Source: Deltaproteobacteria bacterium (GTDB taxonomy: Bacteria; Myxococcota; Kuafuiibacteriia; Kuafuiibacteriales; Kuafuiibacteriaceae). From it: a DNA stretch of 32,874 nt. Under the pieces are notes generated by a model. The model saw only the letters and a program-made list of their open reading frames with translations, did not search any database and was not told where the DNA came from. Every line of letters begins with the position of its first letter. The stretch's first letter is position 1. Positions 1 to 32,874 of the stretch are shown here, in pieces. Position numbers and translations under genes: made by a program. Location of the stretch: positions 1-32,874 of the forward strand of contig JAVJQW010000026.1 in NCBI GenBank assembly GCA_040218735.1, in the 5' to 3' direction.

Positions 1-2
1 CG

Positions 3-20
3 TTCTGGGGGAACGCGTAA
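3..20 (+). CDS. Possible last codons (..FWGNA*) of the intron-encoded reverse transcriptase/maturase
   Basis: TAA at 18-20 lies just upstream of domain V, where an intron ORF in domain IV would end. Too short to verify. Confidence 0.3.
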   Translation, partial: FWGNA

Positions 21-125
21 TGCAGCAACTCAAGAGACCACCGGTAAGCCGTGTGCGGGAAATCCGCACGCACGGTTTGAAAGGGGGTCTTGATTCACTC
101 TTCCGCCGAACGGCGGCAAAGGAAT

Positions 126-130
126 AAGGA
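126..130 (+). promoter_or_regulatory. Shine-Dalgarno AAGGA inside intron domain VI, serving the ATG at 138
   Basis: AAGGA, 7-nt spacer, then the ATG that opens a signal-peptide ORF. Confidence 0.7.
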
Positions 131-137
131 TCTACCA

Positions 138-1757
138 ATGAAGTTAGCGCTGCGCATCCTCACGCTCTCCCTCGCACTCGCCAGCTGCGCCGCCTCGGCG
201 CAGACCCGGCCCGACCCCGAGGCGTCGCGGGTCGTCATCTTCAAGGACGGTCACGCGTTGATCGTTCGGACCTTCACCGCCGAGACGAACGAGCGCGGCG
301 AGGTGCACCTCGACGAGGTTCCGGAGGCCGCGATCCTCGGATCGTTCTGGGCGACCTCCGACGCCGGGGATCTGATCGGGATGCACGCCGGTTTCAGGGA
401 CGTCGAGGTGAAGAAGGAGCGCCGCGTCGTTGCGGGATCGCACCACGGGCTGCTCGCCGCCAACGTCGGCAAACGTGTCGAGCTGCGCTACGCGGACGGG
501 GCGACGTTCACCGGGAAGGTCGCCGAGGTGCTCGGACACGACGAGCCAGAGATCGGCTCGGTGTTCGTGCTCGAGACCGCGGACGGCGACGTGGTGCTCT
601 CTACGAAGGGCATCCGGTCGATCGTCACCGACGACATCACCACCGCGCACACCGAGAAGGTCGAGACCAAGGAGCGGAAGAAGCGACTGACGTTGCGCTT
701 CGCGGAGAAGAACGCGCGCCGCGAGATCACGCTGACGTACTTTCGACCGGGGGTGCGTTGGATCCCGACGTACCGACTCGATCTCGAGTCATCGAAGAAG
801 GCGAAGCTCACGCTGCAGGCGGAGATCATCAACGAGGCCGAGGATCTCAGCGGTCTGCCGATCGACGTGATCGTCGGCGTCCCGAACTTTCGCTTCAAGG
901 ACGCAGTGAGCCCGATGATCCTCGAAGCGCGCTTGAAGCAGACCCTCGCCGCCGTGGCGCCCTCGCTCTCCGCGCAGGTGCAGTCGTTCTCCAACGCGAG
1001 CTACGAGCGTCGGGCGCCCGAGGAGCGCGCGGCGGTCGCGGCGCTCCCGTCGGAGCTCGCCGGATCGCTGCAGGGGGATCTGTTCGTCTTCTCGCTCCCG
1101 GCGATGGAGCTGCGCCGCGGTGACCGCGCGGCGGTTCGGGTCTTCGAACGCAAGGTGTCGTACCGCCACGTGTACACCTGGGACCTCCAGCTGCGGACGG
1201 GCTCACTCGTCCGCACGCCCGCGCAGATCGGTTCGCCGCTCGACATCGCTAAGAACGAAGTCTGGCACCAGCTCGAGCTCACGAACGACACCGACACGGT
1301 GTGGACGACGGGCGCGGTGATGGTGATGAGCGACGGGCGTCCGCTCGCGCAGGAGCTGATGACGTACACGTCGCGCGGCGATCGCGTTCGAGTGCCGCTG
1401 ACGATCTCCGTCGAGACGCGCGGCACGGCGGACGAGGAGGAGACGGGACGCAAGCTCGACGCGCTGCGGTGGGACCACAAGGCGTACGCACGGGTGGATC
1501 GGAAGGCGAAGCTGTCGTTGTGCAATCACAAGCCGGAGGCGATCGACGTGGAGGTCACGCTGCACCTCGGCGGGCGGGCTACGAAGGCGAGCCACAAGGG
1601 CAAGGTCGTCCTCGGTCCGTATCGGTCGCAGGACTGGGCGCGGTACCGCGGCTCACCCGCGGTGAACAACAGCTCGACGGTGAAGTGGACGCGGCGGCTC
1701 GGTCCCGGCGAGACGTTCGAGCCCACCGTCGTGTACCGCTACTTCGACGTGCAGTAG
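138..1757 (+). CDS. Secreted DUF4139-like protein
   Basis: Signal peptide MKLALRILTLSLALASCAASA. Motifs SRVVIFKDGHALI, LTYFRPGVRWIPTYRLDL, GDLFVFSL and WHQLELTNDTDTVWTTG resemble DUF4139 proteins. Start moved from 90 to 138. Confidence 0.75.
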   Translation: MKLALRILTLSLALASCAASAQTRPDPEASRVVIFKDGHALIVRTFTAETNERGEVHLDEVPEAAILGSFWATSDAGDLIGMHAGFRDVEVKKERRVVAGSHHGLLAANVGKRVELRYADGATFTGKVAEVLGHDEPEIGSVFVLETADGDVVLSTKGIRSIVTDDITTAHTEKVETKERKKRLTLRFAEKNARREITLTYFRPGVRWIPTYRLDLESSKKAKLTLQAEIINEAEDLSGLPIDVIVGVPNFRFKDAVSPMILEARLKQTLAAVAPSLSAQVQSFSNASYERRAPEERAAVAALPSELAGSLQGDLFVFSLPAMELRRGDRAAVRVFERKVSYRHVYTWDLQLRTGSLVRTPAQIGSPLDIAKNEVWHQLELTNDTDTVWTTGAVMVMSDGRPLAQELMTYTSRGDRVRVPLTISVETRGTADEEETGRKLDALRWDHKAYARVDRKAKLSLCNHKPEAIDVEVTLHLGGRATKASHKGKVVLGPYRSQDWARYRGSPAVNNSSTVKWTRRLGPGETFEPTVVYRYFDVQ

Positions 1758-2810: not shown

Positions 2811-3671
2811 GTGTCGGCGCTCGTCTGGTCCATGCTCCTCGTGAGCGTCACCGTCCCGAAGGTCACCGTCGAAGTCGATGGTTACTGCCTGCGGGAGGAG
2901 GTCGCGCCGCCGTTCGAAGGGTTGGCGTCGGCGTCCTGGATCCTGGTGCGGACGTCGACCCAAAGCCTCGCGGTCTCGGTCGTCACCCCGGCGCAGCAGC
3001 TCGAGCGGAGCGTCCCGTTGGACGGCGGGTGCGCGGTCGCCGCGGAGCGCGCCGCGCTGATGATCGAGCGTGCGCTCGAACCCATGTTCGCGGACGACAC
3101 CCACGCCGGCCTCACGCTGCCGGCGCCGCCGCCGTCGCCGCAGGCGGTGCCGTTCGCCGTGGGCGCGTCGTGGCTCCTCGACACCGGGCGCGTGCGTACC
3201 GGGCCGGGGGTGTTCGTTCGAGCGGGGTGGGGTGCTTGGTACGCCGAGGTCGCGGGCGGCGTGTTGTTGTCGCAGTCGCAGGACGTGGATCGCGGTGGTC
3301 GCACGATCGGCACGATCGCGGCGTGGTCGTTGTTCGCGGAGGCGCGCGCGGCGCGCTGCTTCGATCTCGACGTCGTGCAGACCTGCGGACGCGCGGGGAT
3401 CGGCGCGGAGCGGACAGCGGGGCGCGGGTCGGGAGATCTGGTGTTCGACGAACGGTCGGTCGCGGCGTGGGGCCTGCGGAGCTCCGCGACCGTGACGGTG
3501 GAGCTGCTCCCGCTGCGCCCGGTCTCGGCGGTGGTGTTCGGTGGTGTCGTCTGGCGTCCGAGCCCAGACTCCTTCGCGGTCGACGACGCGGGCCCGGATT
3601 GGCAAGTGCCCGAGATCGCGGCGCTGTTCGGCTTGGAGCTGGGTTTCTTTGGCGCCCTCGAGATTTTTTGA
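2811..3671 (+). CDS. Hypothetical exported/outer-membrane protein upstream of ECF sigma
   Basis: Hydrophobic N-terminus, Pro linker, amphipathic beta-strand-like C-terminal half ending in F. Start is GTG 2811 or ATG 2832. Confidence 0.6.
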   Translation: MSALVWSMLLVSVTVPKVTVEVDGYCLREEVAPPFEGLASASWILVRTSTQSLAVSVVTPAQQLERSVPLDGGCAVAAERAALMIERALEPMFADDTHAGLTLPAPPPSPQAVPFAVGASWLLDTGRVRTGPGVFVRAGWGAWYAEVAGGVLLSQSQDVDRGGRTIGTIAAWSLFAEARAARCFDLDVVQTCGRAGIGAERTAGRGSGDLVFDERSVAAWGLRSSATVTVELLPLRPVSAVVFGGVVWRPSPDSFAVDDAGPDWQVPEIAALFGLELGFFGALEIF

Positions 3672-3717
3672 AGGCGAGGAGCTGCTCGCCCCATTCACGG
3701 GTGTCGACGGCGGACCC

Positions 3718-4340
3718 GTGCATGCGAAGACGGCGGCGGCGCCCCTCGCGGGGCGCTCGGGAGGCGATGGCGCCGAGGTGGATTCGTCCGACCTCGAGCT
3801 GGTCGCGCGTGCGCGCTCCGGAGACCGAGCCGCCTGGAGGCTCATCTACGAGCGTCAGTTCGACTACGTGTTCCGGATCGCGCGTCGCCTCGGCACGCCC
3901 GACTCGGAGGCCGAAGACGTTGCGCAGGAGGTGTTCGAGATCATGCTGGCTCGACTCGATCGGTTCACCTACGGGCGCCTCACGACCTGGACGTTTCGCA
4001 TCACTTCGAACGTGGTCTCGGACCGTCACCGGCGGCGACGGGTGCGCCGGGCGTTCGAGAAGCTCGGCGTCGTCGCACCCGAGCGGCCCGCGCCGCCGAC
4101 GCCCGAGCGGGTGGCGGAGTCGAACAGCGCGAGTCGGGCGGTGCGGCAGATCCTCGAGCGCATGAGCCCCAAGAAACGCGAAGTCTTCGTGTTGTTCGAG
4201 CTGGAAGGGCTGTCGGGCGCCGAGGTCGCGCAGCACGTCGACTGTCCGGAGGGCACCGTCTGGACGCGCCTGCACCACGCCCGACGCGACTTCGTGCGCA
4301 TCGGTCGCAAGCTGGGTTGCATCGAACCGGAGGACGCACC

Positions 4341-4344
<4 letters not shown>
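3718..4344 (+). CDS. ECF (sigma-70 group 4) RNA polymerase sigma factor
   Basis: DLELVARARSGDRAAWRLIYER, AEDVAQEVF, TWTFRITSN (region 2); REVFVLFELEGLSGAEVA...GTVWTRLHHAR (region 4). Start uncertain (3718 or 3778). Confidence 0.93.
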
Positions 4345-6020
<1,676 letters not shown>

Positions 6021-32113: not shown

Positions 32114-32721
32114 GTCGGGCCAGCGGATACTGCTTTAGGCCCAATGCCGGTGAGTTAGCGGATCTGGCCACCTGGAAAGGCCGTAGGCGGGGCATGACGC
32201 GCCCGACGCACCTTGGAACGATCGCCCGACGCTGGTGCCCCCGCCGGCCCGCGCGGGCCGCGCTCCACGTCGGTAGGAGGACGGCGGTCGACTCCGCTCG
32301 ATGGCCGGCGCTCGCAGTGCTCCGTATGTTGCGGTCGCGGCGCGGCCATCCCCCTGATGGAGCTTCGCGGCCTCGCACGCGAGTGACCCACGCCGCCTTC
32401 GACGCGTTCACGAGACCACGGGGTTGAGCGTCGGATGATTGCGCCGGCGGCGGTCGAGGGCTGCGATGGACCGGTGAGGTTCGCCGGCTGGGTAGGGGGA
32501 ATGGGCGGTCGCGCAAGTTGAGTTGCGGAAGAATTTTCGTTCTCTTTTGGGGGTTGACGGAATTGGAGGCCCTGTCCGGGCCATCTGTTCGACGAACGCA
32601 GCGCATTTCGAAGTTTTTGGACTTGGACTCGTCTTCGGATGCTGACGGTCCGTATCGTGCGTCCTCGCACGTCTCGGGCCGTCATTCTCGGACCGCGCCA
32701 AATCGCGTTTCGAGGGCTCGA

Positions 32722-32739
32722 TGATATCTTCGTCGCATG
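32722..32739 (+). promoter_or_regulatory. Putative extended -10 (TG-A-TATCTT) 6 nt before an ATG (leaderless-type start)
   Basis: TGATATCTTcgtcgcATG; no Shine-Dalgarno close to the ATG. Confidence 0.4.
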
Positions 32740-32874
32740 GTGCGTCGTGACGCGGACGGATCCGGAGACGCGCAAGCGTCGACGGATCGGTGCGCTGGCT
32801 ACGCCTCTCCAACGGATGAGAGTTCCGTCCCGGTAAGCGCCGGAGCGCCGGGTAGCAGGCCCCAGGTCGAGAAG
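32740..32874 (+). mobile_element. Probable group II intron 5' end (start of domain I); truncated by window end
   Basis: Begins with the consensus GTGCG. Dense hairpins follow (GATCCG..GACGC-GCAA-GCGTC..CGGATC; CTCTC..GAGAG; CCCGG..CCGGG), then GTAGCAG. Similar in length to the intron fragment at the other end. Confidence 0.6.

Follow-up and report, generated by a model that had tools for sequence, protein, structure and literature searches.

Group II introns in bacteria are thought to persist mostly by avoiding genes, and group II introns usually end in AY. Reverse transcriptases (RTs) of the CL1 type usually carry D/En domains. The yeast cox1 introns aI1 and aI2 are mitochondrial group II introns in which the upstream exon and the RT ORF share one reading frame.

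A 2015 review lists homing sites, terminators and attC sites as target rules (PMC4424553). Group IIC introns lie behind terminators and attC sites (PMC4424553, PMC12584367), and IIC-attC introns with outward promoters have been described (PMC3001079). Insertion at start and stop codons, essential genes included, is known from a IIB1 clade (Michel 2007) that is reported from proteobacteria and whose members carry a 300-700-nt insertion in subdomain Ia near the 5' end, encode CL1-type RTs and are about 3.2 kb long (PMC12584367). The groEL intron of this clade swaps the host stop codon for one that the intron supplies. According to PMC12584367, it is not known how the introns of this clade locate translation signals. 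The RT lineages of class F and of the unclassified groups g1 and g2 consist of RT and maturase without an endonuclease domain (Toro and Martinez-Abarca 2013, PMC3552965).

Structure and copies of the intron

The window (the whole stretch of DNA that was analysed, 32,874 nt) begins within an intron and ends within another copy of it. Positions 1-140 are the final part of a mobile group II intron 2052 nt in length. The features are as follows.

1-20, forward strand: last codons and TAA stop (18-20) of the RT/maturase ORF; full copy at C20:286506-288557
45-79, forward strand: group II intron domain V (RF00029, fold, 10 covarying pairs in 58 sequences)
83-136, forward strand: domain VI with the bulged A134 as candidate branch point (fold, covariation, bulged A near-invariant across the family)
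126-130, forward strand: AAGGA, purine-rich, 7 nt 5' of the terminal AUG; a possible, if doubtful, Shine-Dalgarno sequence
138-140, forward strand: last three nucleotides of the intron (AUG), with the 3' splice site after G140 (copies, empty sites, EBS1-IBS1)
141-1757, forward strand: 3' exon, host gene from codon 2 to the stop
32725-32739, forward strand: end of the 5' exon of the second copy, with a -10-like TATCTT (32725-32730), a 6-nt spacer and ATG 32737-32739, the start of one copy of a multi-copy HNH-like element
32740-32874, forward strand: 5'-most 135 nt (GUGCG...) of a further copy of this intron, truncated by the contig end

The Rfam model RF00029 (Intron_gpII) matches positions 44-139 of the forward strand with 44.4 bits (E 9.3e-6; gathering score 40) and is the sole Rfam match in the window. 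Folded as a single sequence, the region forms domain V at 45-79 and domain VI at 83-136; A134 is the only bulged base, and the tail A137-G140 is unpaired (z -2.79; 1 of 200 shuffles was equally stable). Both helices covary in an alignment of 58 family members, in which 12 of the 22 predicted pairs show double changes and the domain VI pair 46-95 is altered on both sides in 28 sequences. The bulged A, the two C-G pairs after the bulge and the 4-nt tail AAUG are near-invariant in this alignment. Domains V and VI, which the initial annotation had recognised from the letters, are thus confirmed by the Rfam score, the fold and the covariation. Its coordinates for AAGGA and ATG 138-140, 7 nt apart, also agree with ours.

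The intron begins GTGCG at C20:286506 and at window position 32740, in accord with a GUGYG 5' end. Its ORF matches RVT_1 (2.1e-33) and GIIM (2.4e-18) in Pfam and nothing else, without an endonuclease domain; 40 residues follow the maturase domain of the encoded protein. The distance from the intron 5' end to the internal Met codon of the RT is about 570 nt.

The genome holds at least five copies of the intron. We located five 5' junctions (C20, C64, the end of C25, C24 and C23) and four 3' junctions (C25, C66, C38 and C60). The four 3' junctions match one another up to and including ...CUACCAAUG, as does a collapsed copy at the C20 end. They share ...CTACCAATG(A), after which the sequences part and run in frame into the ORFs of three different genes, so that the copies are identical to the intron end and continue in frame, as the initial annotation had anticipated. 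The several identical copies, together with the empty sites described below, mark the intron as recently mobile.

The ORF that starts at ATG 138 encodes 539 aa with a signal-peptide-like N-terminus; the product resembles an exported protein and has a weak DUF4139 match. This ORF is real, since a genome of the same genus has a 75% identical ortholog, and the early assignment of a signal-peptide protein to this start is upheld. An intron-free allele is present in the DNA runs X2, X4 and X5, from three studies, in which the C23 flank is joined directly to ATGAAG. Record 2 of X2 is 17.8 kb long and has 0 differences across positions 138-900. The intron-free alleles from the three metagenome runs and the same-genus genome, a comparison that had been proposed at the outset, carry a single ATG, and each of the two invaded genes has an ortholog in the same genus with one ATG.

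The splice-site register

Because an ATG stands on both sides of the intron, four boundary registers are equal at the DNA level. We set the register from the GUGYG 5' end, from covariation and from a branch distance of -7, all of which are sequence-derived. A domain I loop, 5'-CA(U/C)N-3', covaries with the exon N(A/G)UG. Positions -1 to -3 are paired in 37/37 members (U-A 32, C-G 3, U.G 2) and position -4 in 34/37 with five pair types, while position -5 is paired in just 18/37. There are three CAC loops, and all of them face GTG exons. This covariation identifies the loop as EBS1 and the exon N(A/G)UG as its 4-nt IBS1. The host start codon is therefore the IBS1, and the intron truly ends in AUG. 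The same covariation sets the 5' splice site behind the host ATG and therefore gives the intron end as ...CCAAUG with the branch A134 at -7, the arrangement that the initial annotation preferred.

In its hosts the intron directly follows the start codon and directly precedes codon 2. The terminal three nucleotides of the intron are AUG (consensus CUACCAAUG), and an in-frame start again precedes codon 2. The portable AUG proposed earlier is supported by copies that are identical to the end, by empty sites with a single ATG and by the EBS1-IBS1 register. Since covariation sets the 5' splice site, the 3' end reads UG rather than AY, which is a departure from the consensus and no bar to group II membership. 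That the host ATG persists at the 5' junction had been overlooked before.

One could instead take ATG 138-140 as the host's own start. The intron would then sit in the 5' UTR and end after A137 or U139, and the ATG before GUGCG would belong to the intron or be due to chance. DNA comparison by itself cannot separate the four registers, and an end at U139 would be the usual AY. However, the EBS1 loop varies in step with the triplet in front of GUGYG, as in the three CAC loops that all face GTG, and position -4 covaries too; moreover, the sequence upstream of this triplet is host-specific and also found in the empty sites. The U139 register also needs an intron start of GGUGCG and a branch A at -6, and a mixed register would cause a frameshift in the host. 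We regard this reading as very improbable.

We also looked for further exon contacts. Domain I was scanned at a constant offset from the EBS1 hairpin for 6-bp complements of the flank between -22 and -5, and no consistent peak for EBS2 emerged, although the scan is crude and a short or split EBS2 could escape it. For delta/EBS3, the base 5' of CAU does not follow the first base of the 3' exon when compared by eye.

Host context across the family

The family comprises 80 loci in many bacterial phyla, with isolates of Sorangium, Nannocystis, Embleya and Pelomonas among the carriers; its members are related, and the counts below are therefore non-independent. Close relatives within the same order have RTs that are only 40-49% identical. 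The terminal triplet is ATG in 54 of 58 relatives, GTG in 3 and ACG in 1, so that 57/58 end in AUG or GUG, and CTACCAATG is found in 52/58. An in-frame ORF of at least 80 codons follows in 45/49 loci, against 10 and 25 for the other two frames. The lone ACG copy is followed by a 75-codon ORF and has a decayed intron frame. All of the tested downstream ORFs (10/10) contain a Pfam domain that starts at residues 4-76, and the domains found among the invaded ORFs include MnmE, a class-I tRNA synthetase, and NadD-like and RsmI-like domains. At the other end of the intron, ATG or GTG stands immediately 5' of GUGYG in 40/42.

The 5' flanks have a common layout. In 40/41 of them a TAnnnT motif is followed after 6-8 nt by (A/G)TG and then GUGCG; the spacing is 6 nt in 25, 7 nt in 12 and 8 nt in 3. 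By chance, TAnnnT occurs at 6-8 nt in 0.9% of random positions (111/11800), and the rate in the long ORFs of this genome is 2.5-4.3%. A TAnnnT -10 box precedes the host start codon at a spacing of 6-8 nt. In mycobacteria, the -10 motif TANNNT is centred 7-12 bp upstream of transcription start sites, according to the excerpted text of PMC3898074, and the placement in the 40/41 flanks matches a transcription start at the start codon. Read from the -10 motif alone, the host genes look leaderless.

A search of sequencing runs yielded DNA metagenomes and one metatranscriptome (X20, share 0.05). The latter contains only the unspliced 3' junction of a related intron, possibly from DNA carry-over, and neither a transcription start nor a splice junction or lariat is seen in any of the runs. 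We also considered an outward leaderless promoter within domain VI. TAnnnT is found 5-8 nt before the terminal triplet in only 8/58, and such a promoter was rejected as a general feature.

The survey also bears on whether the intron simply homes to the multi-copy HNH-like element, with the two other insertions at sites that resemble it by chance and a start-codon position of no wider significance. Some 25 copies of the element lack the intron and have the sequence ...CTTCGATGCATG/AGCCCG, and both ectopic flanks are similar to the element (CTTCG.. / CTCCG..GCATG). The family contradicts this explanation: relatives in other phyla, with RTs 55-78% identical, sit in unrelated host genes at the same position and with the same -10 spacing. 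We give it hardly any credence.

Taken as a whole, the observations are probably best explained by a cross-phylum intron lineage that is specialised for the start codons of leaderless genes.

Possible translation through the intron and comparison with known systems

In 22/42 members, this intron included, frame 0 from the host AUG has 0 stops in 181 codons, while the other frames have 2-12 stops over the same stretch; the open frame is missing in 20/42 members. In this subfamily, the frame of the host AUG runs stop-free through domains I-III into the RT ORF. The EBS1 hairpin is found at 9 different distances from the 5' end, and all are 2 mod 3. Coding periodicity is absent from the 190-codon extension over domains I-III, where the three codon positions have an entropy of 0.68/0.76/0.79 and a GC of 0.73/0.65/0.65; for comparison, the RT has an entropy of 0.66/0.53/1.16 and a GC3 of 0.82. 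We read the open frame as stop-avoidance rather than a conserved peptide. The RT may start at its internal Met codon, because the Met before the RT is conserved. The fused RT frame and the leaderless-looking hosts are further observations that the initial annotation had overlooked.

Transcription would start at the host AUG, and the 5' exon of the RNA would then be only 3 nt long. Ribosomes that load on the leaderless AUG could translate on into the RT gene, and such translation would make the RT, keep the 2-kb insert covered by ribosomes, or both. The host protein could then come from the intron-borne AUG of the unspliced RNA, from a re-ligated leaderless mRNA of AUG and exon 2, or by both routes. 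Overall, such a 'start-codon swap' would allow the intron to reside in essential genes. We infer that translation could take place without splicing.

We propose the full mechanism tentatively, as possible rather than probable. The 4-nt EBS1 would read the start codon, and some cue, perhaps the melted or -10-bound promoter, would guide the intron to +3/+4 of promoters. The RT would be translated through the ribozyme from the host promoter and the 5'-terminal AUG, and the intron-borne AUG would keep essential genes expressed without splicing of a 3-nt exon.

A Shine-Dalgarno sequence carried along with the AUG, as the initial annotation had envisaged, is not supported. A127-A130 of AAGGA are paired in the 3' strand of domain VI, an SD-like tetramer is found in 18/60 relatives and in none of the other 42/60, and AGGA is absent from the actinobacterial-type subfamily. 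This lack of an SD-like motif, together with the pairing of AGGA here, would also fit an intron that sits behind leaderless start codons while its terminal AUG is simply the 3' consensus of the lineage with a role in the ribozyme, so that the host protein is made solely from spliced mRNA. Suggested roles are 3' splice-site geometry, a gamma' partner and IBS1 mimicry. ACCAAUG is a near-invariant block, and its invariance could reflect such a role, as in class-specific 3' ends like the IIC consensus in the excerpted text of PMC4028801. The intron is found in essential genes, which would normally imply efficient splicing. However, a long downstream ORF is retained only by those variants in which the triplet is still a start codon (GUG, 3), and the single ACG copy is the one with the 75-codon ORF and the decayed frame. 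If transcription starts at the AUG, the 3-nt 5' exon would also be a poor substrate for exon ligation, and other group II classes end in AY without a start codon. We consider this explanation unlikely, though far from negligible.

A widespread lineage lies inside mnmE-, trpS- and nadD-like genes at one precise site, directly after the AUG of genes that adjoin a promoter, and this suggests a little-known strategy by which a selfish intron can occupy essential genes. If the proposed mechanism is true, it would be the fourth rule of target choice, and bacteria would offer a case in which host initiation signals drive translation of an RT through a ribozyme. The intron would also be a naturally occurring cassette with a start codon of its own and a sequence-only marker of leaderless genes in uncultured phyla. 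A 4-nt guide combined with a context cue is of interest for targetron design, and the lineage supplies many natural insertion sites for studying how introns find translation signals.

Within the literature that was searched, with PMC12584367 as the source on IIB1, we found no description of the present lineage. Like group IIC, the intron lacks an endonuclease domain, has a very short IBS1 (here pairing is confined to -1 to -4), relies on specificity beyond long EBS-IBS pairing and is placed so that host genes are spared. Group IIC, however, recognises DNA hairpins and lies after genes, whereas the site here is a -10 box and start codon at the gene start; judged by the TAnnnT-6-8 nt-ATG flanks, it is not directly behind a terminator or attC hairpin. 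Nor does the 5' end GUGCGUCGUGAC agree with the consensus quoted for IIC boundaries in PMC4028801. Class F and the groups g1 and g2 are similar by description, with no endonuclease domain and overlapping hosts (Actinobacteria, Myxococcus, Sorangium, Burkholderia), and the excerpted text makes no mention of start codons (PMC3552965). As in cox1 aI1 and aI2, the RT frame is continuous with the upstream exon and host initiation signals would drive RT synthesis; the cox1 introns, however, lie deep within genes and have long exons, whereas here the upstream exon is a start codon and the host gets a replacement AUG.

Like the introns of the IIB1 clade, the present one is inserted in or beside a codon at which translation starts or stops. 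It differs in its size, with a length of 2052 nt and about 570 nt from the 5' end to the RT Met, and by these measures it lacks the 300-700-nt insertion. Its ORF has RVT_1 and GIIM as the only Pfam domains. The excerpted IIB1 text mentions no leaderless context, terminal AUG, 4-nt IBS1 or fused RT frame (PMC12584367). The Azotobacter groEL intron, named as a parallel in the initial annotation, belongs to a different lineage. The IIB1 groEL intron is the mirror image of the present one, with a stop codon there and a start codon here.

Intron 3' end and splice-site register

The start of the window is filled by the 3' end of a 2052-nt group II intron, with the following features.

18-20: TAA stop ending the reverse transcriptase (RT)/maturase ORF
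44-139: group II intron model (domains V and VI), Rfam, 44.4 bits
45-79: domain V, from the fold of 44-160
83-136: domain VI, from the fold of 44-160
126-130: AAGGA, 7 nt upstream of the ATG at 138-140
138-140: ATG opening a 539-aa ORF with a signal-peptide-like N-terminus

In the fold of 44-160, A134 alone is bulged, and the tail A137-G140 is left unpaired. The Rfam score, the fold and the bulged A134 confirm the initial annotation of domains V and VI here; no second Rfam match was found anywhere in the window. AAGGA had also been proposed as a portable Shine-Dalgarno sequence. This reading is weak. The domain VI helix includes A127-A130, and a Shine-Dalgarno-like tetramer is found 4-10 nt upstream in 18 of 60 family members. 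A ribosome-binding role of AAGGA is not established.

Four boundary registers are equivalent in the DNA because ATG flanks both sides of the intron. A GUGYG intron start is possible in one of them only. A hairpin loop approximately 250 nt into the intron, 5'-CA(U/C)N, covaries with the exon. Positions -1, -2 and -3 pair with it in 37/37 members (at -3: U-A in 32, C-G in 3, U.G in 2), and GTG exons stand opposite all three CAC loops. Position -4 is paired in 34/37 members by five pair types, and position -5 in only 18/37. This identifies the host start codon as IBS1 and sets the 5' splice site directly behind it. A 3' splice site after G140 lies six nucleotides past the bulged A, which places this A at -7, as in the Rfam consensus. 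Taken together, the GUGYG start, the IBS1 covariation and the branch spacing thus indicate that the intron ends in ...CCAAUG, as initially suggested. This deviates from the usual AY. The sequences compared support an intron that ends in AUG and thereby gives the host its start codon back.

Copies and empty sites

The 11.6 Mb assembly of the source genome (G000, GCA_040218735.1) has 70 contigs, of which the window is C25. The intron tail is also present at the starts of contigs C66, C38 and C60 and at the end of C20, where the full-length copy of 2052 nt begins with GTGCG at C20:286506. The window breaks off within intron copies at both ends (1-141 and 32740-32874). Several contigs have exactly 139-141 nt in common at their ends, which places the assembly breaks at the intron repeat; the shared 141 nt look like an assembler overlap. 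A sixth RF00029 match (C28:4906-4981, 41.7 bits) lacks the 141-nt tail and probably marks another group II intron.

The copies are identical through ...CTACCAATGA and diverge beyond it. C25 continues with AGTTAGCG, the gene of the 539-aa ORF, and C66 with CCTGGTTC, a 382-aa PLP-dependent enzyme (Pfam PALP, 1.1e-65). C38 and C60 continue with GCCCG[A/G]ACGC into a 330-aa ORF with an HNH-like C-terminus, for which a Pfam scan gave no match. The ATG frame is maintained into every one of these continuations; the expectation that aligned copies would match up to this point and then enter different genes in frame was borne out. The five 5' junctions (C20, C64, the window end at 32740-32874, C24 and C23) all read ...CATG/GTGCG, the slash marking the boundary. 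In three of the five the flank is the leader of the HNH-like element, which consists of a conserved leader, some 250-350 nt long, and the 330-aa ORF. The flanks on C23 and C24 are unique intergenic DNA.

The HNH-like element is itself multi-copy (window 32380-32874 and some 25-30 places in G000, for example C29:145127-145372). About 25 further copies lack the intron and read ...GATGCATG/AGCCCG. It is the main home of the intron; few copies are occupied, though the GCATG/A site is present in most.

The true upstream flank of the window's 539-aa ORF gene is on C23. In a genome of the same genus (G001), the ortholog of this gene (75% identity) has homologous upstream sequence, ...GTCGCCGGCATGAAGACC, and a single ATG. 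The upstream flank of the C66 gene is on C24, and its G001 ortholog (83% identity) reads ...CTCCCTCCGATGAGCTGGTTC. Contigs from DNA metagenomes of three studies (runs X2, X4 and X5) align to the window from 137/138 on; upstream of this they carry ...CGCTAACTTCGCCCGC, the C23 flank. One of them (X2 record 2, 17.8 kb) shows 0 differences to the window over 138-900. An empty-site junction of this gene was not found in the G000 assembly itself. Because intron-free sites exist in G001 and in these runs, the insertion is recent and polymorphic. Compared with the empty site, it adds the intron and one additional ATG.

Two further ORFs of the window were judged by eye from the translation. That at 3541-4344 (267 aa) resembles an ECF-type sigma factor. 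The long ORF after it (4317-6020) may be its anti-sigma partner and contains GAC GGC-type repeats at 4937-5116, translated as ADGADGADG...

The family at start codons

A scan of the RT against one genome per species gave 80 loci with RTs 47-78% identical. They span Myxococcota, Planctomycetota, Acidobacteriota, Actinomycetota, Beta- and Gammaproteobacteria, Gemmatimonadota, Chloroflexota and others. The intron end is CTACCAATG in 52 of the 58 members with a placeable 3' end, and the terminal triplet is ATG in 54, GTG in 3 and ACG in 1. More distant relatives, for example from Paenibacillus, have other 3' ends. Sequence of 150 codons or more past the intron is available at 49 loci; 45 of these have an in-frame ORF of at least 80 codons behind the terminal triplet (other two frames: 10 and 25); L033, L084, L091 and L105 do not. 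All ten downstream ORFs scanned contain Pfam domains starting at residues 4-76, including MnmE, a class I tRNA synthetase, a cytidylyltransferase (NadD-like), a TP_methylase (RsmI-like) and an MFS transporter. One of the ten, the DnaX-like ORF behind the intron at locus L048 (2987-3370), is truncated at 128 codons, while 451 codons are open in another frame; gene decay, a frameshift or a sequencing error could explain this.

Directly 5' of GUGYG, ATG is present in 35 and GTG in 5 of the 42 members with both ends placed (the G000 copy included). Neither triplet stands there in L107 and L110, the most distant members, whose boundary placement is doubtful. A TAnnnT hexamer precedes the start codon in 40 of 41 flanks, G000's five junctions included, at a spacing of 6 nt (25), 7 nt (12) or 8 nt (3); the remaining flank, at L051, reads GACAAT. 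The frequency is 111/11800 (0.94%) at random positions of the same loci, 197/7784 (2.5%) at the first ATG/GTG of G000 ORFs of at least 400 codons, and roughly 4.3% for any start among the first 100 codons, spurious ORFs included. In M. tuberculosis the -10 element is TANNNT, centred 7-12 bp upstream of the transcription start (PMC3898074), and leaderless mRNAs are common (PMC3898074; see also PMC3160421 and PMC12340547). Because of the hexamer 6-8 nt before the start codon, we take the host genes to be leaderless; their transcripts would start on the start codon itself, leaving AUG alone as the 5' exon of the RNA. In 8 of the 58 relatives (among them L038, L041, L044, L045, L047, L049 and L091) the domain VI 3' strand carries TAGGAT, and CTACCA separates this from the terminal ATG. 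TAGGAT fits TAnnnT perfectly, its spacing is 6 nt, and it might drive the host gene as an outward leaderless promoter.

All five G000 copies occupy a type of site found at a few percent of gene starts. Four paired bases cannot direct the intron to promoter-proximal start codons. An EBS2, sought by scanning domain I for complements of the 5' flank, was not found.

From the host ATG, a frame of 644 codons without a stop runs through domains I-III into the RT ORF. The fused frame is open in 22/42 members (0 stops in 181 codons in frame 0; 2-12 in the other frames) and is absent from the actinobacterial-type subfamily. Across the 22 fused members the distance between the 5' end and the EBS1 hairpin takes nine values in the range 203-269 nt, all of them 2 mod 3, so indels preserved the frame. 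No codon periodicity was found in the extension through domains I-III. Its entropy by codon position is 0.68/0.76/0.79 and its GC 0.73/0.65/0.65; for the RT the entropy is 0.66/0.53/1.16 and GC3 is 0.82. By these measures, what is conserved is the openness of the extension and not its peptide. A Met codon is conserved directly before the RT domain (Val in one of the eight members listed), so internal initiation of the RT there is possible.

Proposed working and comparison with known introns

The larger finding is a cross-phylum lineage apparently tied to leaderless start codons, with its RT frame fused to the host AUG. Around the observed position, four-nucleotide IBS1, terminal start codon, -10 context, open frame and recent mobility, we infer that the intron is served by the host promoter and a 5'-terminal AUG. 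Ribosomes from the host AUG would run into the RT gene and yield RT; this translation may also guard against polarity over 2 kb of RNA that would otherwise go untranslated. The host ORF would be expressed from the terminal AUG on unspliced RNA, from the AUG trinucleotide re-ligated to exon 2, or both. Host translation without splicing, as initially proposed, is not established by sequence comparison. A contig from a soil metatranscriptome (X20) aligns over window 38-152 and carries a relative's domains V-VI, the terminal ATG and different downstream sequence. The junction is unspliced, though it may stem from DNA carried over into the RNA library.

Titles and abstract openings retrieved for group II introns with leaderless genes contained nothing on such introns. 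Among papers retrieved for start codons only one from the Costa lab was relevant, and among those for initiation codons none was by title; the flanks of this lineage may have been described earlier. Three target specificities of group II introns are listed in a 2015 review (PMC4424553): homing sites, terminators and attC. For a clade at start and stop codons, how translation signals are found is stated as unknown in PMC12584367, which cites Michel et al. 2007; the large 5'-subterminal insertion described there is missing from our intron. A Pfam scan found no endonuclease domain in the intron RT. Excerpts of Toro and Martinez-Abarca 2013 (PMC3552965) do not mention start codons for lineages g1 and g2, which likewise have no endonuclease domain and overlap with this family in their hosts.
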